From a phage: a stretch of DNA of 64,000 nt. The position numbers were made by a program, and so were the translations under genes. Shown one piece after another: positions 4,100 through 56,360 of the stretch (the stretch's first letter is position 1; every line of letters begins with the position of its first letter). Location of the stretch: NCBI GenBank assembly GCA_018175275.1, contig GCA_018175275.1_4531.1, one strand, 5' to 3'. The notes beneath the pieces are model-generated. The model saw only the letters and a program-made list of their open reading frames with translations. It made no database searches and had not been told where the DNA came from.

Positions 4100-4650
4100 T
4101 GTTTATTACAAGTGATTTGCATTTTATGCACAAACGTATACGAGAGTTTGCTCCTGAATATCGACCGTGGGAGGATATGGACCACATGACAGAAGCCTTG
4201 ATCGAAGCATGGAACAAATGTGCTACTACTCCTGGTGTTAAGATGTGGCATTTGGGCGACTTCTGTTTCGGAACTGAAGAAGATACCCGTAAAATTGCTT
4301 CTCGTCTCCAAGGAGATATCACCTACTGTGTTGGGAACCATGACTACAGCAAACACCGAGAAGTGCTTGCAGAGTATGGTGAAGTGGTGTATTATGACGA
4401 AGTGAAATATCAGAAGCTGTTCTTCGTCTTAAGTCATTACCCTATGGCCTCCTGGAACAAACAAGGTCGTGGATCAATCATGCTACACGGGCATTCCCAC
4501 GGATCTTTCCCTGATGAAGCTTATGGTAAAATGTTAGATGTGGGTTGGGATGCACACGGAAAAATCTTGCATTTTGATGAGATAATTACTATGATGAGTA
4601 AACGAGATATCGTGACTGTAGACCATCACAAAATAATCAAAGGAGAGTAA
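4099..4650 (+). CDS. calcineurin-like metallophosphoesterase (candidate RNA 2',3'-phosphoesterase)
   Basis: Motifs SDLHFMH (D-x-H), GDFCFG (GD), VGNHD (GNHD); TAATG overlap with upstream gene. Confidence 0.7.
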   Translation: MFITSDLHFMHKRIREFAPEYRPWEDMDHMTEALIEAWNKCATTPGVKMWHLGDFCFGTEEDTRKIASRLQGDITYCVGNHDYSKHREVLAEYGEVVYYDEVKYQKLFFVLSHYPMASWNKQGRGSIMLHGHSHGSFPDEAYGKMLDVGWDAHGKILHFDEIITMMSKRDIVTVDHHKIIKGE

Positions 4651-4651
4651 T

Positions 4652-5584
4652 GTGACTAAATTTAATTGCGACGATTTGGTTGAAAAAGGTTTAGTTCATA
4701 AGAAAACATATAAAGAAGGAGAGTATTCTGGTCTATCTGTTCTTAAGTATAAGAACAAAGTTTTCTGGGATAACCTGTGGAACATTGATTCTCGTCTTCT
4801 AGAATGTCGCGGAATCGTTGTTGACGCTGATGACAATGTTGTTATTTGGCCTTTCACTAAGATTTTTAATCGTTTTGAGAATGGCACAGATCTACCAGCG
4901 GATGAATTTGTAGATGTGGTTCGTAAAGTAAATGGTTTTATGGCCTCTGTAGGTGTATATAAAGGTCAACTTATTGTATCGACAACAGGAAGCCTTGAAT
5001 CAGATTTTGCAAGTATTGCAAAGAATCATATTGTTTCAGAGTGTGATGACATAGAACATTTCATCAAATGGACAGAGAGTGCAAAAGCAACTTTCCTTTT
5101 TGAAATCTGTGATCCTTCTGATCCGCATATTGTCGAAGAAGAACCAGGTGCATACTTAATTGGTGCCAGAATTCAAAACCCTGATGGGACAAGTTTTATG
5201 TTACCTGAAGGTGCTCTTGATGGAATTGCTTCTGTCACCAAATTTAAGCGTCCTGAAGTTCATCCAATGGTTAAGTTTTCAGATGTTGTTGAAATGTCTA
5301 AACATTGTAAACACGAAGGGTTTGTAGTTCGTGAAACAAACTATCCGTTCAACTTACTTTTAAAAATTAAATCACCACACTATCTTACTAAGAAGTTTCT
5401 TATGCGCGGTGGAGATAAAAAGTGGGATCTGATTTGGGATAATCCAAAAAATGCCAAACAAATGGTTGACGAAGAATATTACGCTTTGTTAGAATGGATT
5501 CGAAATAATTTTACGAAGACTCAATGGGCTGCTTTAAATCAGCAAGAGCGACGTGAAAAAATCGAAAACTTTTTTGGAGGATAA
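4652..5584 (+). CDS. Rnl1-like ATP-dependent RNA ligase
   Basis: 310 aa; LECRGIVVD segment resembling T4 Rnl1 as recalled; candidate nucleotidyltransferase motif I as K-V-N-G; GTG start after AGGAG. Confidence 0.55.
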   Translation: MTKFNCDDLVEKGLVHKKTYKEGEYSGLSVLKYKNKVFWDNLWNIDSRLLECRGIVVDADDNVVIWPFTKIFNRFENGTDLPADEFVDVVRKVNGFMASVGVYKGQLIVSTTGSLESDFASIAKNHIVSECDDIEHFIKWTESAKATFLFEICDPSDPHIVEEEPGAYLIGARIQNPDGTSFMLPEGALDGIASVTKFKRPEVHPMVKFSDVVEMSKHCKHEGFVVRETNYPFNLLLKIKSPHYLTKKFLMRGGDKKWDLIWDNPKNAKQMVDEEYYALLEWIRNNFTKTQWAALNQQERREKIENFFGG

Positions 5585-7865: not shown

Positions 7866-8060
7866 ATGTTTTTAGCCATTCTAATCGTTTTCAGTGCGCT
7901 TTCTTTTTATTGTATGAATGCTTCGGAAAACTTTCCTAAGAATTCAAAGAAAAGAACCGTATGTGTTGCGATTGATTCATGTATGTCTGGAGTTGGGTAT
8001 GCGGTAGTTTCTTGTTTCTTAGCTTATCATTGTGCAAAATACTTGGAGGCATTTTTATGA
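7866..8060 (+). CDS. small membrane protein
   Basis: 64 aa, hydrophobic N-terminus; AAGGAGG upstream. Confidence 0.5.
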   Translation: MFLAILIVFSALSFYCMNASENFPKNSKKRTVCVAIDSCMSGVGYAVVSCFLAYHCAKYLEAFL

Positions 8061-28846: not shown

Positions 28847-29083
28847 ATGGGTAAACTAATTATGACAGTGGCTATTGATTTTGATGAAGTAGATGAAAGC
28901 CTCAACCTTTCACTTTCTACTGATGTAGAGGGTGAAATGGATAATATTGAAGCAGCTACTGCTCTTTTCTTCAAAAAAGCTATTGAAGTTTATGCCGAAC
29001 ATGCTGCAAACCAAGCAGTAGACTATGGCGGCATCGTGCGAGCTTTGGTTCACTCTACCGAGAACAATGACTGGGAAGACTAA
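28847..29083 (+). CDS. hypothetical acidic protein
   Basis: 78-aa ORF; TAAGGAG upstream. Confidence 0.5.
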   Translation: MGKLIMTVAIDFDEVDESLNLSLSTDVEGEMDNIEAATALFFKKAIEVYAEHAANQAVDYGGIVRALVHSTENNDWED

Positions 29084-29286
29084 TGGCTTACAATTATTAC
29101 TGCATTTATGCACATGAAAAGAAAAAAGGTGACACTGGGACTAACGTTTATGCGGAGTCTGAATCTCATGCAAAAGAGATTGGTGCTATCCTTCTATCAC
29201 GCTGGACTGGAAATAATTACAGTGCAGAAGATATGTTTGCAGAAGTGGATTCTGGTATCCAAGAAGACAACATAACAACTACGTGA
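29083..29286 (+). CDS. hypothetical protein
   Basis: 67-aa ORF; TAATG overlap. Confidence 0.5.
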   Translation: MAYNYYCIYAHEKKKGDTGTNVYAESESHAKEIGAILLSRWTGNNYSAEDMFAEVDSGIQEDNITTT

Positions 29287-29332
29287 TATACTTATACTCC
29301 CTTCTCGGAGGGAGTATTTTTAAGGAGGGATT

Positions 29333-29527
29333 ATGCAGAGCGGAGAAGAACTTTTAGAGAAACAATTCTCAACGCGTCAACAAGCTTTAAGTTATATGGT
29401 TTTTCTAAGTAATCTTGATGTGAATGAGATACTTTTACGGCGCGAAGGTAATTTCTGGAGCGTTAAATATCATGCAACAAGGTCTGTAATCTACCTGGAA
29501 GAGGCGGAATTCTCTTTGGTAGAATGA
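29333..29527 (+). CDS. hypothetical protein
   Basis: 64-aa ORF; AAGGAGGG upstream; preceded by hairpin/T-run at 29292-29322. Confidence 0.5.
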   Translation: MQSGEELLEKQFSTRQQALSYMVFLSNLDVNEILLRREGNFWSVKYHATRSVIYLEEAEFSLVE

Positions 29528-33841: not shown

Positions 33842-33865
33842 AACCCGCTTCGGCGGGTTTTTTAT
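33842..33865 (+). terminator. rho-independent terminator
   Basis: ACCCGC-TTCG-GCGGGT followed by TTTTTT. Confidence 0.6.
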
Positions 33866-38562: not shown

Positions 38563-38586
38563 TGAAAAAACCCGCCGAAGCGGGTT
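38563..38586 (-). terminator. terminator/attenuator-like hairpin
   Basis: On minus strand ACCCGC-UUCG-GCGGGU then U-run, 25 nt upstream of next start. Confidence 0.45.
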
Positions 38587-42519: not shown

Positions 42520-42715
42520 TTCTACCTCCTTCAATGCTTTGTGCCGTACCATCCCAAGCCATTAGAATGTTTTCCAATAGTTCACGAGGATCTTTAAACC
42601 AAACTTCCATTTCATCAAGGATCTCGTCCGTGTCGTAAGTATAACCTGGAACACCAAGTTCACATTTCTTAAGATAGCTTTCTAACCAGCGGTGATAATT
42701 CTTAACCCCATTCAT
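42512..42715 (-). CDS. hypothetical protein
   Basis: 67-aa ORF. Confidence 0.5.
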   Translation of the reverse strand: MNGVKNYHRWLESYLKKCELGVPGYTYDTDEILDEMEVWFKDPRELLENILMAWDGTAQSIEGGRNE

Positions 42716-43040
42716 ACTGTGCTACCTTTTCTTTTACCCAATCTACACGATCTTTATCATAATGTTGAGTGCCAAGGAAAAGACCATTGTGGAAACTTTC
42801 CTCACCGAAAGGATAAATTGGATCTAAACCATCTTCTTCAAATAACATTTTTAATCTGTTTGATGTAGATTTCTTAGTTTCTGAATTGTAGTTTGTGGTT
42901 ATAAGCCAATCTTCCAAACAACGACACAAACCTTGACGAGAATCCCAAGGAAAAACACAATCTCCGACAGGAGCTTGTTCCGCCCATTTCAACCAGCCTT
43001 TAAAAAAGTTATACAGTATGTAGTCTTCAGTGTAATACAT
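42702..43040 (-). CDS. paralog family A protein (GLC...PF...RVxWV motif)
   Basis: Internal ATG of track ORF 42702..43088 with AAGGAGGAG upstream; shares WL..W, GLCRCL, PFG, RVDWVKE with five other ORFs. Confidence 0.55.
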   Translation of the reverse strand: MYYTEDYILYNFFKGWLKWAEQAPVGDCVFPWDSRQGLCRCLEDWLITTNYNSETKKSTSNRLKMLFEEDGLDPIYPFGEESFHNGLFLGTQHYDKDRVDWVKEKVAQYEWG

Positions 43041-43091
43041 TATCTCCTCCTTTACGTATACAATAACACCCCGAAGAACGGGGTGCAACTG

Positions 43092-43703
43092 TTATTTAAT
43101 CTGTTTGAAAATTTCGTTTGGAACGGTACCGTTTAAAATACCTTCTACGATCTCTTGTGCAGATGTGTAAGAGAGTCCAAAAGAAGCTACGCCTAAAATT
43201 GCCTCCTTCAAAGGATCTGGCAGGGGTTCAAAATTACCTGCAACAAAGCCACCTGCACAAGCAGCGCCTTCATCATCCCAGAAAACAACTGCTACATCGT
43301 TACCATGCGAAGTTGTGCGATGTGCAATAACTTCAACTTCGGTGCCTTCTTTAGGAACAGAATAAGAACTGTCCCAAGAATATCTTTCTAAATCAGGAAC
43401 AAAGATAACCTTTTCACCTACTGGCGGCAGTTCACAACGATAATACCAAGAATTTTTTTCGTTCATTGCTCTATTTTCCTCCACGTCTTCAAAAGTAACG
43501 ATCCAATCGTAGCCGTAAGAAAACGGATATTTTAGATCTAAAGAATAAGTTTGACCTAGATCGTCCTCAACAAGAACCATCTTGTCAAAGTTTGCGATGT
43601 TAGGATTATGTTTAATGACAGGGTATGTTTCCCCTACAGTAAATTGTCCTAAATGGTAAAGTTCATCTCTCCAAGTAATTTGGATATGAGTGCATTGAAT
43701 CAT
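43092..43703 (-). CDS. hypothetical protein
   Basis: 203-aa ORF; GGGGGTGA upstream. Confidence 0.6.
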   Translation of the reverse strand: MIQCTHIQITWRDELYHLGQFTVGETYPVIKHNPNIANFDKMVLVEDDLGQTYSLDLKYPFSYGYDWIVTFEDVEENRAMNEKNSWYYRCELPPVGEKVIFVPDLERYSWDSSYSVPKEGTEVEVIAHRTTSHGNDVAVVFWDDEGAACAGGFVAGNFEPLPDPLKEAILGVASFGLSYTSAQEIVEGILNGTVPNEIFKQIK

Positions 43704-43707
43704 AAAA

Positions 43708-43980
43708 TCACCCCCAAGAAATATTTATATATCTTACAATGTTTGCACTGTCTAAAGCCATGTTTGCACCACACCCACGCTCGCGCCAGTAACTAACAAT
43801 ACCTTCACAGATACTCTCTTGTATCTTCTTATCACTTGGCATTTCTAGTATAAGACTTGGGTTGTGGATGTTTATGTTATAATACCCTTCCTCTGCTGCT
43901 TGAGCTACCAATTTACTTACTTTTTCAAAGTACGGGGAATTAGTGGCATCTGCCATTGTTTTTAAGGTTTGTCTATCCAT
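43708..43980 (-). CDS. hypothetical protein
   Basis: 90-aa ORF; TAATG overlap. Confidence 0.5.
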   Translation of the reverse strand: MDRQTLKTMADATNSPYFEKVSKLVAQAAEEGYYNINIHNPSLILEMPSDKKIQESICEGIVSYWRERGCGANMALDSANIVRYINISWG

Positions 43981-44345
43981 TATTCTGCCTCATCATAGAA
44001 GAAATCCAACTCTTGTTCCAGTTGTTTAACTTGATCCTTAACCCACTGTACACGTTTTTCATTAAACATGCAACGTTTTTCCTTACACTCTTGCTCAAAA
44101 GATTTTGCTGTGTTAAACGGGAAAGTTGTATCTAAACCAGCATTTTCAAAACTGGCTAATTGCATACCATAAACAGAATATGCTAAAGAATGATCGGCTC
44201 GAAATTCATCACTTATATACATACGTAGACCTCGGCATAAGCCAACATCAGCGTAACCACTTTCTCGTGGAAAGAGACGGAGGTGTTCTAACCAATTATT
44301 ATAGAAATCTAAAAGAATCCTCTTACACTTCAAATCAATTGTCAT
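43980..44345 (-). CDS. paralog family A protein
   Basis: Internal ATG of track ORF 43980..44378 with AGGAG upstream; GLCRGL, PFN, RVQWVKDQV. Confidence 0.55.
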   Translation of the reverse strand: MTIDLKCKRILLDFYNNWLEHLRLFPRESGYADVGLCRGLRMYISDEFRADHSLAYSVYGMQLASFENAGLDTTFPFNTAKSFEQECKEKRCMFNEKRVQWVKDQVKQLEQELDFFYDEAE

Positions 44346-44745
44346 AAAAAGTTTCTCCTTCATCGAACAAGTTGGCAAGATTGTTCACCGCAATTTGGGT
44401 GGAAAGAAGACAACTGTTTGCAGACACATAAGCACGAGCTATTTTGTAAACATAGGCTTTCGTATTACAATTATCTAGGATCGGAAGACTTTCGTCGATA
44501 GCATCTATAACACTAAACATCACATCTAAAACTTTAATGGTGAGTGTTGTATTTGTATCTTCGTAACCTTTTTCAATCCGACCTGAATAGAAAGCATAGT
44601 CCTCAACAGTTCGTCGTTTAAACTGGCGCATAAAATCGGAACCATCTGTAGCAGAATTGAACAAATTTTCAAAAAATACGTCCCATCCGGCAAAAAGGGC
44701 TGACAGCATGATTAAGTGATCTATAGATTCATTTTCTTGTTTCAT
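44335..44745 (-). CDS. hypothetical protein
   Basis: 136-aa ORF; AGGAGAGG upstream. Confidence 0.6.
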   Translation of the reverse strand: MKQENESIDHLIMLSALFAGWDVFFENLFNSATDGSDFMRQFKRRTVEDYAFYSGRIEKGYEDTNTTLTIKVLDVMFSVIDAIDESLPILDNCNTKAYVYKIARAYVSANSCLLSTQIAVNNLANLFDEGETFYDN

Positions 44746-44753
44746 ATCCTCTC

Positions 44754-45425
44754 CTATTTAATGTTCAGTCTGGCACACAAACGAGAAACAGTTTTAGCAT
44801 CCCATTTACCACCACGTGCTGTTGCTATTTTCTTACTATTGAATTTTTCAGCAATAGTTTTGTAAGGTGTATTTAAATCTCTAAGGATCTCCAAGCGTTC
44901 ACGGAATGTCTCTGCAAAAGCGTCTGCTTTAACAGAGTTGTATTCCATTTTTCCTTTTCTACGTGCAGCGGCAGTTTTAGGATTAGCACTGCCTAATAAA
45001 ACACCTTTGCTTTTTGCTACAGCAAGCCCCTTTTTAATACGATCAGCAATACCTCTAACTTCTTGTTCAGCCAGAACAGACAGAAGCTGTATAACCATTT
45101 TATCTGCGTCTGGCATGATGGCTATCTTAACATCAATCATTTCTAGAAGAGTTGCTACGGAGGCGTTGTTACGACCCAAGCGGTCAACTTTAGCTACCAA
45201 TAAAGTTGCTCCGGTAGCTTTACACATTTCAACCGCTTTAACCAGTTCCTTACGTTGCTTCCAATCGCCCTTACCCGAATAGTATTCAGAAAATTGACCA
45301 ATAACTTCCGCATCAGGCACAGAGTCTAAGAAGTAACGGATATCATTCTCTTGGCTCTCCATACCATATTGTGCCTCACCTTTTTTCTGTTTAGAAAGAC
45401 GACTGTAAACAACAAACTTTTTCAT
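44754..45425 (-). CDS. serine recombinase (resolvase/invertase family)
   Basis: VYSRLSKQKKGEAQ (catalytic Ser region), VDRLGRN, LAEQEVRGIADRIKKG; C-terminal HTH-like tail; AGGAG upstream. Confidence 0.75.
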   Translation of the reverse strand: MKKFVVYSRLSKQKKGEAQYGMESQENDIRYFLDSVPDAEVIGQFSEYYSGKGDWKQRKELVKAVEMCKATGATLLVAKVDRLGRNNASVATLLEMIDVKIAIMPDADKMVIQLLSVLAEQEVRGIADRIKKGLAVAKSKGVLLGSANPKTAAARRKGKMEYNSVKADAFAETFRERLEILRDLNTPYKTIAEKFNSKKIATARGGKWDAKTVSRLCARLNIK

Positions 45426-45454
45426 AACCACTCCTAAACCATTGCTGTATTCTC

Positions 45455-45484
45455 ACTTTACAAAACGAATAAACACTTGTCAAG
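45455..45484 (-). promoter_or_regulatory. sigma70-type promoter for recombinase gene
   Basis: Minus strand TTGACA-18 bp-TAAAGT, no downstream stem-loop. Confidence 0.45.
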
Positions 45485-45495
45485 GTATTTATTAT

Positions 45496-45708
45496 TTACA
45501 GCCATTCTACTCTTAAGCAGTATTCCTCGACATGTTGTTTACGCTTGTTTTTGTCTATGTAAGTGTATTCAACAAATGTCCCAAGATAGTCCTTGTCTAC
45601 ATTGTGTGGGCTATTGATTGGACATTTAGTACGACAAACCCGTTGCCACTGACGAAGAATTACGGCTTTGTTTTTAGGATCAAAGGGATGAGGGTAATGT
45701 ACCTTCAT
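45496..45708 (-). CDS. hypothetical protein
   Basis: 70-aa ORF; AGGAGGCG upstream. Confidence 0.55.
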   Translation of the reverse strand: MKVHYPHPFDPKNKAVILRQWQRVCRTKCPINSPHNVDKDYLGTFVEYTYIDKNKRKQHVEEYCLRVEWL

Positions 45709-46032
45709 TCACGCCTCCTGTTTTAGTCGAAAAATATTTTGAATAACTAGAGATGTATAGTTATCACTTAGTCCCATAAGTTCTACTTCCAAGTTTCGAA
45801 TATCTTCCACCGTAGGAGGATATGTTGGTAAAAATGCTTGAGCATTGCCAGATCCAACCTCATTGCTGTAAGCAGTTGTAAAATTGTAAGATACAAAACA
45901 TGAAACACCTTTTTGTCGGTACCCGATTAATCGACGAATACACCAGATAAGAGCCAAACCTATGAGAACACCTCCTAAACCAGCTAACAAGAAGGATAAG
46001 TTCATAATAGCTTCGTTAACAACTGCTTGCAT
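45709..46032 (-). CDS. membrane protein
   Basis: 107 aa with TM-like LSFLLAGLGGVLIGLALIWCI; AAGGAGAAA upstream. Confidence 0.6.
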   Translation of the reverse strand: MQAVVNEAIMNLSFLLAGLGGVLIGLALIWCIRRLIGYRQKGVSCFVSYNFTTAYSNEVGSGNAQAFLPTYPPTVEDIRNLEVELMGLSDNYTSLVIQNIFRLKQEA

Positions 46033-46042
46033 TCTTTTCTCC

Positions 46043-46342
46043 TTAGTTGTGTAAACCCAAATGTGCTACAACTTCTCTACGATAAGATAACTGCATAGCG
46101 ATTTTATAGCCAGGATGAAAACCATTTACATCAATGTCATCAAACCAAACCTCAAATGAACCGTGTTTAAGAGTCATTAAGTTAATATACCATTCAATAG
46201 TATAATGATCGTTAGCAATACCTTCGATGTAAAATTCTCGACAACAGTGAGATAAATCTTCACTTGTTTCACGTTTCCAGTCTTTGATAGCACCCTTCTC
46301 TTTGGCTTTATTCAGAATGTGGATCAGGTCTTCAACTTGCAT
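46043..46342 (-). CDS. hypothetical protein
   Basis: Internal ATG of track ORF 46043..46390 with AAGGAGAG upstream. Confidence 0.55.
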   Translation of the reverse strand: MQVEDLIHILNKAKEKGAIKDWKRETSEDLSHCCREFYIEGIANDHYTIEWYINLMTLKHGSFEVWFDDIDVNGFHPGYKIAMQLSYRREVVAHLGLHN

Positions 46343-46352
46343 ATTCTCTCCT

Positions 46353-46907
46353 TTAGTTCCAACTAATAATAATGTGTTTGATAATCCCAAAAATACTGTG
46401 CTCTGCGGTTGCCAATGTTACATCCAAACCTTTTGCACGTAGCATTGTAGCTACAACATTTGCCCCTCTTTTCTGTTCACTTATCTGTTCATAAGAAGAA
46501 GGGTTATTGCACAAACCAAAACTGGAAGGTTCAAAGTATTTTTCAAACTTCCCTTGTTCCGCACAATCTTCAATCTCTAATAGAACGGCGTCTACCATTT
46601 CAGTAAAATGGGAATTTGCTTGCAGTGCTTTATTACGCAGTTTATCACGTAAACTTCCCGTAGATTCTTCCTGCTCTTCTGTCTGTCCATCTTCACAGAA
46701 AGGATGAAGTTCAGCCCAGTCCCAAGCATCTCCTTCTAAAGCAAATGGAGTGTTGTAATTGAAGAAAGTGCAGCGCGGATATTCCCCGTTGAAAGAATCT
46801 TTCAGCAGAATATATTTCTTACCGTTTGCATGGAAGAGTTCTCCTTTGATAACCTTACCTACAAGGATATCACTGTTAGTGGAACGGGTGCAAATAAATT
46901 TTTTCAT
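46353..46907 (-). CDS. hypothetical protein
   Basis: 184-aa ORF; AGAGGAGAAA upstream. Confidence 0.6.
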   Translation of the reverse strand: MKKFICTRSTNSDILVGKVIKGELFHANGKKYILLKDSFNGEYPRCTFFNYNTPFALEGDAWDWAELHPFCEDGQTEEQEESTGSLRDKLRNKALQANSHFTEMVDAVLLEIEDCAEQGKFEKYFEPSSFGLCNNPSSYEQISEQKRGANVVATMLRAKGLDVTLATAEHSIFGIIKHIIISWN

Positions 46908-47191: not shown

Positions 47192-47415
47192 TCTTCCATC
47201 TCAAACCATTCAGGGAACACTTTGCGGAAGACCCGCGTGTTTTCTAAGAGAAATTCCAACTCTTTTTCCAAATCTGCGTTCCAACCGTTTATTTTAACAC
47301 GGATTGCCAATGCACTTGCACGGCGACTCAATTCTTGACAGATTGGATCACGCAGAACTATTGAGTCATAAAACTGACAAACAGCCTCAAGTTCATACCA
47401 GTTATAATCCGACAT
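47188..47415 (-). CDS. hypothetical protein
   Basis: 75-aa ORF; AGGAGGATG upstream. Confidence 0.55.
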   Translation of the reverse strand: MSDYNWYELEAVCQFYDSIVLRDPICQELSRRASALAIRVKINGWNADLEKELEFLLENTRVFRKVFPEWFEMEE

Positions 47416-47741
47416 TATTCATCCTCCTCTGCAATACGATCTCTTACCCAATTAATCCTGTCCACGTTCAGGTGACATACCTCTGCATCTGATTCTAAGA
47501 CATATGCATCGTAGTTCTCATTGAAAGGGAGTGCTTGACTCAACCCTTTGTGGTAAAACTGTGCGTGCATTTCATCTGACAAGGTTGTTATAAGGGGATT
47601 GTAATTACCTCTGTGCACATAATCGAACAAGTTGGCACACAAACCACAATCCCGCCGAAAAGGTTTACCATCAGGAGCACCAACATCAATCCATGCTAGA
47701 TAAATTTTATAAAACTCCATCAACCTTGTGCTTGTTTTCAT
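47415..47741 (-). CDS. paralog family A protein
   Basis: YLAWI, GLCANL, PFN, RINWVRDRI; GAGGTGG upstream. Confidence 0.6.
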   Translation of the reverse strand: MKTSTRLMEFYKIYLAWIDVGAPDGKPFRRDCGLCANLFDYVHRGNYNPLITTLSDEMHAQFYHKGLSQALPFNENYDAYVLESDAEVCHLNVDRINWVRDRIAEEDE

Positions 47742-50455: not shown

Positions 50456-50656
50456 TTATTTATCTTGCTTGTATCTTACAAGGCGATCACACTCCAGGTC
50501 AAGAAATTTCTCCGCATTTCGTTCATGTTTGAGCACAATACATTGTTCTTTCCAGTCTGTAGCTCTTTGCTGCGCTGCTCCTGGGTCAAAATCCCAAAGC
50601 CATGCCGCGAAAAGAACAACCATAACAATTACCAAGAAACTAAACACTATTGGCAT
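50456..50656 (-). CDS. small membrane protein
   Basis: Internal ATG of track ORF 50456..50692 with AGGAGGATG upstream; TM segment IVFSFLVIVMVVLFAAWLW. Confidence 0.5.
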   Translation of the reverse strand: MPIVFSFLVIVMVVLFAAWLWDFDPGAAQQRATDWKEQCIVLKHERNAEKFLDLECDRLVRYKQDK

Positions 50657-50961
50657 TGCACATCCTCCTGTGTAGCATGATCTTTTACCCATTTTATACG
50701 GGCAGCATTCAAATGTAGCAGCCCGTTTCTTTGTGCAAAATCATATTTAAACCAATCCCCATCATCAAACGGGTATTCTTCAGACAAACCTGCTTCGCGG
50801 AATTGCATTTGCATTTCATAATTTAGGTCATCATAACCACCAGACCAAAGATAGAGGCAACTACATAATCCTTTATCATGCCAGAAAGGATTATTATCTG
50901 GAGCACCAGCTAACAGCCAGTTATGATATGCCTGATAAAATTCTTTAAGTTCCTCTGACAT
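50647..50961 (-). CDS. paralog family A protein
   Basis: YHNWLLAG, GLCSCL, PFD, RIKWVKD; AGGAGGT upstream. Confidence 0.6.
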   Translation of the reverse strand: MSEELKEFYQAYHNWLLAGAPDNNPFWHDKGLCSCLYLWSGGYDDLNYEMQMQFREAGLSEEYPFDDGDWFKYDFAQRNGLLHLNAARIKWVKDHATQEDVQCQ

Positions 50962-54062: not shown

Positions 54063-54431
54063 TTATTCAATGCAAGCATTATTTGCATCTTCAATGCGAT
54101 CTTTCACCCATTGAAGACGTAACGTGTTGGTATGACACGCCAAGTTTATACACTCTGAAAGGTAATCCATGCAATCTGCATTGAACGGAAGATTGTAGTC
54201 CAGCCCTGCACATGTAAATTGTTTCCTCATTTCATATTTCAAACGGTCTAACAAATGATCACGCCATCTTCTATCTTCTTCTCTAGTTGCCTCACCAACA
54301 AAATCATCTACATAATCTACCAGACAACCACATAAGCCACTCGTTGTGCGATTCATTGCAGGATAGTTGGCAATCCATGCTTTGTAGAAGCGAAGCAATG
54401 TTGCACTACTCAACGGAATATTATTTGTCAT
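54063..54431 (-). CDS. paralog family A protein
   Basis: Internal ATG of track ORF 54063..54446 with AAGGAGAG upstream; FYKAWIA, GLCGCL, PFN, RLQWVKDRI. Confidence 0.55.
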   Translation of the reverse strand: MTNNIPLSSATLLRFYKAWIANYPAMNRTTSGLCGCLVDYVDDFVGEATREEDRRWRDHLLDRLKYEMRKQFTCAGLDYNLPFNADCMDYLSECINLACHTNTLRLQWVKDRIEDANNACIE

Positions 54432-54765
54432 TTTTCTCTCCTTCATAATCCTGAATTCTATCTAGCACCCATTGTATACGATGTTTGTTTTTATGGCAAA
54501 TATGTTTTTTATGTTCGAAGGTGTATTCCTCATAACCACCTTCATTAAACGGGAAATTGTAATCTAGTCCTGCACCAATAAACTGGGATTTCATCTCTTG
54601 TTGTAGACGAGGTAACAGTTCATCAGGGTATGTTCCCTCTACATACTTAATCAAACATATGCACAAGCCACTCGTTGTGTGACCTTCTACCTCACCAGCA
54701 AGCCAAGCTTTGTAAAACTTCATTAGACGTAAACTACTTAACGGAACATTTTTACTCTCTTGCAT
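54421..54765 (-). CDS. paralog family A protein
   Basis: FYKAWLAG, GLCICL, PFN, RIQWVLDRI; AGAGGAGAT upstream. Confidence 0.6.
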   Translation of the reverse strand: MQESKNVPLSSLRLMKFYKAWLAGEVEGHTTSGLCICLIKYVEGTYPDELLPRLQQEMKSQFIGAGLDYNFPFNEGGYEEYTFEHKKHICHKNKHRIQWVLDRIQDYEGEKNDK

Positions 54766-56360
54766 GACAATCTCCTCTCATCGTTAGCCATCTTTCATGG
54801 CAATCATCAATCACCAACATCATACGATCAATCTTAAGGAATTACAATCGAATTACCATAGGGGATTCCTATCAATTATCCCATATATACCGATTATTTT
54901 TGACACCCCACTCTTGTATAAAAAGTAACCCAAAATATCTACGGGGAGAGATTATTTCGGGACACCTTGTTTCATGGCAATCATGGCAAGAATATCTAAT
55001 AGAATCAATATCCTATGGCAAAAATCATGGCGCATACGTAAGAAGTGCTTAACGCGAATTTTCGGGCCGTCAGGTCCACGCAGCGACAATTCCCAAATAT
55101 CATGCGAATGAGAATAATTATCATTCGTATTCAATGACTTATGCAAGGCTCATGCCAACATAGCGACAAGGTGGGCCACCTGATTATAAATCACACAAAT
55201 ACTTATTTATCAATGGTTTGGCAACTTCATCATATGACGGAACACTGTCAACTAATCCCGCTCATGACAAGCAGACTATTATTTATATGAGAATGATTAT
55301 TATTTAAACGTTTATTAACATAAAAACTAAAATAAATCAAGAATTTTCTGATTTTATTTACGTTTAAGAGAACTTGCTCAACATTCCCGCCTGTGGCGGT
55401 AACATTTCGCCCCCAAAATTATTGACTTTTATTCTATTATGTGCATAGTGTGCAATGTATCGGAATGATGATAATCATCCTCCCATTGCCCCCATAATTA
55501 TTGCCTTGCTAATCTTTTCATTGCTAATCATTACAATGATTATTGTTATTGCGCTAATGTTATGATCTTGGTAATTACATATAATGCTAATAATAAGCCA
55601 GCGCAATAAGTGTAAGCGTCATTACGCTTGCAATTATTGCAAGCTACGCAGTAACAAGAAATAACCGTCACCGATGGTTATGATTGTTGGGGTGTAGTTG
55701 GCTTATTATTAGCTCGCTATGTGTCCGGCATAGCGTGCTAATGATGACTCTGTGAATGATTCGTTTTGTAATGATTTCATTCATGCACTATTTTGCTAAT
55801 AGTTATTATTTTAATGGTTTCGTTTGTTATTGTTCGTTAGTTGGTTGTTTTGTCGTGTTATCGTTATTTTGCTTAGTATTCATCATGGTTTGATTGTTTG
55901 TCGTTATCAATCATCTTGCTATTATTCCTTTGATTATGATTAGTTTGCTTATTGTTTTATGTTGTTTGTTGGTTAGTTGTTGCGAACTATTATCAACATT
56001 ATAATTATGCGCTTATATTGCATAGATAATCATGGGTAGATGATAATGGTTATCATTGCACTAGAAAGGAGGTAAAAGGGTGTTTTTGATGGTTTGTTGT
56101 TGGTTGTTGATCGATTTTAACCGCTCTAAATGGCTCTCTAACAGCCTGTAACCCTGGGAGGTATGGTTATTCGTTTGCTGGTTGATTAGCTCGATACCGC
56201 GATTTATTCAGTTTTGTTCTGTGTCGGTTTTTCATAGGCGGAACCTATTGAGAAGATGATAAATAAACTTGTTTGTTATTGTCTGATTAATAGGGTTAGT
56301 CTATCAACATTGTTCGGGCAAAAAGAAAGGGCGCTTGGTGCGCCCTTGTTTTGTTGTCAA
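54766..56360. other. ORF-free island with iterons, palindromes and strand-compositional skew
   Basis: No ORF >=60 aa with SD on either strand over about 1.6 kb; six (T/C)GCTAAT copies at 55505-55805; C-poor G+T-rich plus strand 55800-56000. Confidence 0.5.
56318..56348 (-). terminator. rho-independent terminator
   Basis: Minus strand AAGGGCGCA-CCAA-GCGCCCTT followed by UCUUUUU. Confidence 0.55.

Follow-up and report, generated by a model that had tools for sequence, protein, structure and literature searches.

A conserved small serine recombinase gene with its own predicted promoter in a lytic Phapecoctavirus-like phage

What reaction could a site-specific recombinase carry out in a phage whose relatives are regarded as lytic? 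The question is raised by a minus-strand gene on contig GCA_018175275.1_4531.1 (NCBI GenBank assembly GCA_018175275.1), a stretch of 64,000 nucleotides that was analyzed as a whole and is called the window below. The gene is already present in GenBank and is of a known kind. On the basis of its motifs, alignments with homologs and a structural model, we consider it almost certain that its product is a functional small serine site-specific recombinase. Our comparisons further suggest that the gene and its predicted promoter form a conserved unit, and, as a tentative answer to the question of function, we propose recombination of the resolution type, acting on copies of one phage site that lie in direct repeat. 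The features on which the argument depends are collected in Table 1.

The translation holds the motifs YSRLSKQ, DRLGRN and LAEQEVRGIADRIKKG, in which a preliminary description of the locus had recognized the serine recombinase family. Profile searches bear this assignment out. Residues 5-142 matched the Pfam family PF00239 (Resolvase) with an E-value of 5.2e-18 and 66 bits (cut-off 23.3), and the same family was matched by all 58 homologs that we collected. In addition, the protein matched PHROG 125, labeled 'DNA invertase' (E 2.6e-32), and a sequence search of the PDB returned the Tn3 and gamma-delta resolvases (E ~1e-6); among the NCBIfam equivalogs, just far sub-threshold matches to YneB, XisF and Mpi were obtained. 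Residues Y7, R9, S11, Q25, R58, D81, R82 and R85 were invariant in alignments of 25 and of 58 members, and E120, E122 and R129 were nearly so. The nucleophile, Ser11, is encoded by the TCT codon at 45395-45393. The invariant residues match the catalytic set Y6, R8, S10, R45, D67, R68 and R71 of gamma-delta resolvase, whose sequence served for the numbering and was checked over residues 34-142 against the PDB search match. The catalytic Tyr/Arg/Ser and Asp-Arg..Arg residues were unchanged in the 58 homologs down to ~30% identity, and thus the loss of the catalytic serine or arginine, which the preliminary description had raised as a possibility, was not seen. An AlphaFold model, for which the 58 homologs served as input, reached a mean pLDDT of 88 and showed a strand/helix core, a long helix at residues 109-139 and four C-terminal helices. 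Its top Foldseek matches were the catalytic domains of serine recombinases (Sin, gamma-delta, TP901-1) and the full-length large serine integrase Bxb1.

The putative DNA-binding tail consists of a basic linker (ARRKGK) followed by a helix-turn-helix (HTH) with the motif IA..FN..KIATARGGKW....VSRL. An HTH-like tail had been proposed before, and it agrees with a partial match to PF07508 ('Recombinase') and with the model, in which helices occupy residues 149-172, 175-183, 188-197 and 210-219. The PF07508 match is weak (residues 187-216, E 0.003, 18.2 bits against a threshold of 21.1) and covers positions 19-48 of the 102 in the profile. PF07508 was also matched by 25 of the 58 homolog tails and PF20552 (HTH_62, 'Recombinase-like HTH') by two, and HTH_7 (PF02796) was matched neither by the recombinase nor by any of the 58 homologs. 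The protein contains no zinc-ribbon or coiled-coil domain (PF13408), because it stops after the first helical sub-domain, at residue 223; it therefore cannot be subject to the control known to decide between integration and excision. By these matches, the tail appears to be a truncated HTH of the large-serine-recombinase type, equal to the first part of the 'Recombinase' domain. It diverges faster than the catalytic part, with identities that are typically 35-40% against 60-70%. In phage phiWec181, residues 1-145 are 95% identical to the window protein and residues 146-223 are 37% identical, and nucleotide homology breaks off at the domain boundary. The tail was exchanged outright in the phiWec181 lineage, and target specificity would therefore differ between close relatives.

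The longest open reading frame (ORF) at the locus, 44754..45431 on the minus strand, begins with GTG. We prefer the ATG at 45425-45423, since the sequence AGGAG sits 5 nt before it and overlaps the GTG; the protein from this ATG begins MKKFVVYSRLSKQ, and the stop codon TAG lies at 44756-44754. The gene is flanked by 64 bp of intergenic DNA upstream and 8 bp downstream. A promoter of its own, composed of TTGACA and TAAAGT, had been noted previously. It stands as a predicted promoter of the sigma70 type, with the -35 at 45483-45478 and the -10 at 45460-45455, ~29 nt upstream of the ATG, and its spacer is corrected from 18 to 17 nt. A 10/12 consensus match is by itself at chance level, as 15 such sites were counted in 6 kb and 15.3 in shuffled sequence. 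Nevertheless, a comparable sigma70-like promoter lies 24-40 nt before the recombinase start codon in seven of seven phage lineages, and a match of at least 10/12 occurs upstream in 15 of 78 loci among IMG/VR relatives, against 1.3% of control windows; the IMG/VR matches are concentrated in a clade of large phages. Because the promoter recurs in the seven lineages and is enriched among the IMG/VR loci, we regard promoter and gene as a conserved unit. Neither Ro121c4YLVW nor phAPEC8 differs from the window at any position in the 70 bp preceding the gene, and the homology of phiWec181 upstream of the gene reaches 45493. Nine neighboring ORFs (42702-46907) were scanned and every one fell in a PHROG of unknown function. 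The recombinase gene sits among small early genes, in the small-gene block reported earlier, and early transcription by the host RNA polymerase from its own predicted promoter is most likely.

The gene is intact and selected, because its catalytic residues are invariant and all substitutions relative to two relatives are synonymous: 13 against Ro121c4YLVW and four against phAPEC8, with no non-synonymous change against either. The protein is 100% identical across ~60 published genomes. Between genera, dN/dS was ~0.09-0.18 in the three computable comparisons, and synonymous sites were saturated against Citrobacter phage Tr1. Together, these values point to strong purifying selection. A tblastn search recovered the gene in all Phapecoctavirus-level records and in every other lineage of the subfamily Stephanstirmvirinae that was sampled, with identities of 100% in Phapecoctavirus, 75% in the phiWec181 group, 67% in Tr1, 57% in Justusliebigvirus (phi92 gp053) and 55% in Klebsiella phages. 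Outside the subfamily, relatives were found in Vibrio phages of 128-137 kb (35-39%) and in a few ICP1 isolates (30%). One record departs from this picture: that of Schickermooser (MK373788, 11300-11600, corresponding to window 45100-45400) has six small deletions in the first 200 bp of the gene, and its annotation covers just the last 128 aa of the recombinase. We considered these frameshifts as a natural knockout and rejected the idea, as small deletions are found in neighboring genes too and are probably sequencing errors.

The window DNA is 98-99.5% identical to Phapecoctavirus genomes, for example 536P1, phAPEC8 and SKA64. By this identity, the source phage is assigned to Phapecoctavirus, as a phAPEC8-like member of Stephanstirmvirinae; it is not T4-like, as the preliminary description had supposed. 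The sole link to T4 is the T-even resemblance of one ORF (45496-45708, minus strand), located just upstream of the recombinase promoter. This ORF encodes 70 aa, belongs to PHROG 2008 of unknown function, and shares 78-83% of its nucleotides with a small gene that T4, T2, T6 and RB phages carry in their tk.3/tk.4 area, which indicates probable gene exchange between T-even phages and Phapecoctavirus. Phages of the Phapecoctavirus type have been described as virulent, lytic myoviruses, and the direct terminal repeats reported for them measure 328 bp (Schickermooser) or 342 bp (BME3). Such short direct terminal repeats mean that each infecting genome carries a directly repeated sequence. Position 1 of Schickermooser, and of many further records, corresponds to window position 55378, which, together with the 328-bp repeat, places the physical left end and the repeat at ~55051-55378. 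Since a genome end falls inside the window, the window stems from an assembly running across the ends. The recombinase gene lies ~10 kb inside the left end, and its transcription heads away from that end.

Does the DNA around the gene reveal a site on which the enzyme acts? The search for inversion covered the 64-kb window, with ~86 kb of the genome lying outside it. No credible inverted repeats were found within +/-7 kb of the gene, and the preliminary description, which had proposed a search of +/-5 kb, had likewise seen none by eye. Just one inverted repeat in the window is perfect, and it is formed by two oppositely oriented copies of a 22-bp terminator hairpin, AACCCGCTTCGGCGGGTTTTTT. This pair was rejected as a set of inversion sites, as it represents a terminator used twice and the interval between the copies is never inverted in at least 52 genomes. 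Other inverted-repeat matches resembled ribosome-binding sites, arose by chance or were terminator hairpins. At least 52 related genomes are collinear over 32.5-57.5 kb of the window, at >81% coverage and in one same-strand block, and inversion of this segment is therefore excluded. The relative loci that were compared individually are fully collinear with the window as well. These results contradict the earlier suggestion that the enzyme might invert a nearby segment. More widely, nearby inverted repeats of at least 18 nt were present in two of 80 related viral loci. A res site with three subsites was not found in the 64 bp upstream of the gene or in the corresponding 10-57 bp of relatives, and no repeated half-sites were seen there. 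A scan of the window for palindromes with a 2-bp center and arms of 12-16 gave those at 748, 7914, 38238 (a terminator) and 55605, among which no half-site sequence is common. The palindrome at 55605 was set aside as a site, as its 2-bp center is lost in phiWec181 and it is more likely a hairpin. The one at 7914-7947 is an intergenic 16-2-16 palindrome, ATGAATGCTTCGGAAA-AC-TTTCCTAAGAATTCAA (13/16), between two plus-strand genes. Finally, a blastn search with the recombinase gene gave no match among 5,426 complete E. coli genomes.

We favor a resolvase-like activity because neither credible inverted repeats in the window nor inversion in the related genomes were seen, no copy was found in the E. 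coli genomes, integrase domains are missing and the relatives outside phages lie on plasmids. The best explanation, which we hold as a tentative and quite possible one, is recombination of the resolution or deletion type, acting on direct repeats of a single phage site. Among the three roles put forward in the preliminary description, the resolution of multimers would accordingly be the most plausible. Compared with resolution, we rate segment inversion and host integration as less likely. To judge from the family, recombinase dimers would use the C-terminal HTH to bind a short site of roughly palindromic sequence, and two site-bound dimers would synapse. Ser11 would then cleave all four strands with a 2-bp stagger, and half of the synaptic complex would rotate before the DNA is rejoined. 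In this manner, terminally repeated, dimeric or oligomeric early replication forms could be converted to monomer circles. Small-plasmid relatives are presumed to resolve multimers, and Cre is comparable for phage P1. The closest full-length non-phage relatives, with 35-40% identity, are on plasmids, of which 102 of 120 are non-mobilizable and many are 5-30 kb in size, and in two example plasmids ~650 bp of non-coding DNA lie upstream of the recombinase gene. On the Klebsiella plasmid NZ_CP118334, a 16-2-16 palindrome, TATCATTTGTTTGCCG-NN-CGGCAAATTTATGATA, is located at 4323-4356, ~35 bp upstream of a homolog with 36% identity, and it is a plausible candidate for the binding or crossover site of the plasmid enzyme. 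We infer that a long upstream region with such a palindrome may correspond to the layout expected of a multimer-resolution system.

Several observations weigh against resolution as the function of the phage enzyme. First, no recombination site was identified: the flanking DNA leaves no room for a classical res, and no 2-bp-centered palindromes occur within 400 bp of the gene in seven phage lineages. Second, it is not obvious why multimers would have to be resolved in a phage whose DNA is packaged from concatemers. Third, a tail that diverges fast and was swapped once would suit a changing target as well as a fixed phage site. Fourth, the gene occupies two non-homologous positions within Stephanstirmvirinae by ORF-by-ORF blastp, no relative was detected in Vequintavirus (rV5-like phages) at E < 1e-8, and the gene was seen in only a few ICP1 isolates, where it occupies a variable block flanked by GP30 and GP41. 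The absence from Vequintavirus and the patchy occurrence in ICP1 suggest an accessory rather than a core replication function. Fifth, some prophage relatives adjoin tail or baseplate genes, as Gin and Cin do, so that the wider family may include invertases.

A more specific version of the resolution proposal would make recombination a regular early step of lytic infection throughout Stephanstirmvirinae, in which a single site would serve to circularize or monomerize the incoming genome and the DNA-binding domain would co-evolve, or be swapped together, with that site. We regard this version as improbable. If it held, the site could possibly be found in the conserved non-coding terminal region, an ORF-free stretch of 1.6 kb (54766-56360) that includes the terminal repeat.

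A different explanation is that promoter and recombinase constitute a selfish or moron-like cassette that spreads among large virulent phages, possibly driven by the enzyme itself and with little benefit to the phage. This is unlikely in our estimation, though several comparative observations speak for it. The window phage, phiWec181 and Tr1 have the gene among the small early genes at the left end. Recombinase gene and promoter of phi92 and of Klebsiella phage phi1_175008 are found in the other transcription block, at the exact junction of the homologs of window ORFs 29083-29286 and 29333-29527, where a clean insertion or deletion of this single gene separates conserved neighbors and the window has an 'empty site'. 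The neighboring genes are otherwise unrelated, as the window locus has no neighbor gene besides the recombinase in common with the phi92, ICP1 and Vibrio loci. Unrelated Vibrio phages, including the few ICP1 isolates with the gene in their variable block, present the same promoter-plus-gene layout, and the surroundings are mosaic, the upstream ORF being ~80% nucleotide-identical to a T-even gene. In contrast, all ~65 Phapecoctavirus records have the gene at one fixed position, with a 100% identical protein and synonymous substitutions throughout; decay is the usual fate of a selfish gene once it is fixed. No flanking repeats and no duplications of a target are visible. Moreover, the protein tree tracks the phage genera (100, 75, 67, 57 and 55%), so that one old relocation would be enough for the two positions. 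The mobile cassette entertained in the preliminary description gains partial support from the unit of gene and promoter at two positions, but within the genus that unit is fixed and under purifying selection.

It is also conceivable, though we think it distinctly unlikely, that the recombinase is an early enzyme directed at the host or at competitors, rearranging host, prophage, plasmid or satellite DNA for takeover, counter-defense or interference with rivals. The location among small early genes of unknown function with host-type promoters would fit such a role, as would the patchy distribution outside the subfamily, with its variable block in ICP1, and a DNA-binding domain that evolves quickly and has been exchanged, as expected of a changing target. 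However, the protein has no similarity to known defense proteins (the PADLOC defense-system models gave no match), E. coli genomes have no related gene whose sites could be borrowed, and no candidate target was identified. To our knowledge, an enzyme of this kind directed at the host or at competitors is without precedent.

The remaining alternatives have considerably less in their favor. A DNA-binding regulator that no longer uses catalysis would account for the fact that a recombination site was not found within the searched DNA, and resolvases often repress their own promoters; but all catalytic residues are invariant in the 58 homologs, which is unexpected if the chemistry were dispensable, and we consider this very improbable. 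Similarly, we give little credence to a DNA invertase of the Gin/Cin/Hin kind that flips a phage segment, such as a receptor-binding protein switch. PHROG 125 and several GenBank records do say 'DNA invertase', and distant prophage relatives adjoin baseplate or tail genes, but the only perfect inverted repeat in the 64-kb window is the pair of terminators described above with its uninverted interval, the gene has no repeats nearby and its locus is collinear in all compared genomes, the tail is not HTH_7, and inverted repeats are rare near the related viral loci. An integrase, or a remnant of a temperate lifestyle, is hardly credible even though a homolog in one Klebsiella phage record is labeled 'integrase' and screening tools flag serine recombinases as lysogeny markers, considering that zinc-ribbon and coiled-coil domains are missing, that the E. 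coli genomes gave no blastn match and that descriptions of the family speak of lytic phages whose genomes carry direct terminal repeats.

These findings have practical and biological implications. Phapecoctavirus and Justusliebigvirus phages are in use and have been proposed for therapy, and pipelines treat any recombinase as a warning of lysogeny; the lack of integrase domains, prophage copies and a flanking invertible segment helps both safety assessment and annotation. An intact, selected recombinase across a virulent subfamily and in unrelated Vibrio phages implies an undescribed recombination reaction in lytic infection, and the natural tail swap offers an experimental handle on the target of the enzyme. 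If the gene instead moves as a cassette by itself, it would add an uncommon type of mobile gene to those of phages; if recombination is a regular early step, these strictly virulent phages would possess a device like Cre/loxP built on a serine recombinase.

Some observations were made beyond the recombinase gene itself. The ORF-free terminal stretch holds a conserved structured element, which was compared over four subfamily lineages with nucleotide identities spanning 70-88% (88% in phiWec181, ~70% in Justusliebigvirus PHB05 and in Klebsiella phi1_175008). In this element, 11 of 57 predicted pairs covary and several helices are kept by compensatory changes, among them a 15-bp outer stem, GCTAATAATAAGCCA/TGGCTTATTATTAGC, and the hairpin CGCTATG-TGTCCGG-CATAGCG. 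G-T pairs on the plus strand point toward RNA, and the element has no match in Rfam. It could be a structured RNA, an origin of replication or a packaging signal; a link with the recombinase is pure speculation. Fur-box-like palindromes occur at 55109-55123, 55288-55302 and 56041-56055, with one or two mismatches to TGATAATnATTATCA, the core of the E. coli Fur-box consensus, and these three cluster in and next to the terminal repeat. The window has five such matches where 0.9 would be expected, and both of those with one mismatch belong to the cluster. The palindromes could serve control in response to iron, or a phage protein could bind them. In addition, the left-end block contains at least six copies of a family of paralogous early proteins of ~105-130 aa, all encoded on the minus strand. 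Two of these paralogs were scanned, those at 42702-43088 and 43980-44378, and both fall in PHROG 2510 of unknown function. C-termini in the family resemble RVDWVKEKV or RINWVRDRI, and the expansion of the family differs in phiWec181 and Tr1.

Table 1. Positions of the recombinase gene, its parts and other features in the 64,000-nucleotide window.
Feature	Position	Strand	Basis
Small serine recombinase coding sequence, 223 aa	44754..45425	-	ORF list, sequence, Pfam, PHROG 125
Catalytic domain and long helix E, residues 1-145	44991..45425	-	Alignments, Pfam, model, Foldseek
C-terminal putative DNA-binding region, residues 146-223	44757..44990	-	PF07508 match, model, homologs
Ribosome-binding site AGGAG	45431..45435	-	Read from sequence; 5 nt 5' of ATG
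Sigma70-type promoter, predicted	45455..45483	-	Consensus scan, 10/12
'Empty site', 46-bp gap with terminator hairpin	29287..29332	+	Between phi92 gp054 and gp052 homologs
Identical terminator hairpins, 4.7 kb apart	33842-33863 and 38565-38586	opposite orientations	Inverted-repeat search
Conserved structured non-coding element	~55575-55745	+	Conservation, covariation
Paralogous early-protein family	42702-43088, 43980-44378, 47415-47741, 50647-50961, 54063-54446, 54421-54765	-	ORF comparison

How, then, does the phage gene stand among known systems? GenBank labels for the family conflict, as 'putative site-specific recombinase', 'resolvase', 'DNA invertase', 'serine recombinase gin', 'integrase', 'ABC transporter ATP-binding protein' and 'hypothetical' are all in use. 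In the searchable literature, we found no functional study of the Phapecoctavirus/Justusliebigvirus recombinase. Two publications on these phages report that no recombinase is present, and a published guess at concatemer resolution by the phage recombinase was made without data. The nearest counterparts are of the same family. Phi92 gp053, called a 'DNA invertase', is 57% identical over its full length and has the same domain layout and its own promoter, but it differs in genomic position; it and phAPEC8_0049 ('putative site-specific recombinase'), like their counterparts in Phapecoctavirus and Justusliebigvirus, are known by annotation only. Among prophage relatives, no clear inverted repeats emerged near two loci, L010 and L012. 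At L010, where the homolog is 43% identical and lies beside a gene with a T4_baseplate domain and near a large serine recombinase, positions 4624-4711 of the contig hold two 25-nt inverted copies, 38 nt apart, each with a hix/gix-like palindrome such as AGGAAAACCGTGTTTTCTT; these repeats may form an inversion switch in that relative.

Comparison with the well-studied small enzymes shows a shared core with different surroundings. The Tn3 and gamma-delta resolvases and Sin have the same catalytic domain, helix E and catalytic residues and a similar size of ~200 aa. However, the phage protein lacks their HTH_7 domain, and the adjacent three-part res site, neither a transposase nor transposon ends were found among the nine scanned neighbor ORFs, and its region between strand 4 and helix E is ~10 residues shorter. 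The invertases Hin, Gin, Cin and Pin are small phage-encoded serine recombinases too, and database labels group the phage gene with them, but it has neither inverted hix/gix-type sites nor an invertible segment, its DNA-binding domain is different, and its phage is lytic rather than temperate. The large serine recombinases (Bxb1, phiC31, TP901-1, A118) have in common with it the N-terminus Y.R.S....Q...S.Q and the HTH at the start of PF07508, yet the phage protein has 223 aa instead of 450-600 and no zinc ribbon or coiled coil. In IS607-type transposases, a MerR-like HTH precedes the catalytic domain, whereas the order in the phage protein is reversed, with the catalytic domain N-terminal. Cre/loxP of P1 is a functional analogy only: Cre, too, is a site-specific recombinase encoded by a phage, and it can close a genome with terminal redundancy into a circle and split dimers. 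It is, however, a tyrosine recombinase from a temperate phage, and its site, loxP, is next to the cre gene, whereas no site was found next to the gene described here. The same architecture, with 35-40% full-length identity, is found in plasmid 'recombinase family proteins' of ~215-235 aa from Klebsiella, Paracoccus, Marinovum and Synechococcus, although two examples of these have ~650 bp of non-coding DNA upstream, one of them with the 16-2-16 palindrome, where the phage gene has a promoter region of 64 bp. The phage enzyme falls outside the invertases, the Tn3-type resolvases, the serine integrases and the IS607 transposases, and it belongs to an uncharacterized group of ~220-aa recombinases with members on small plasmids as well.

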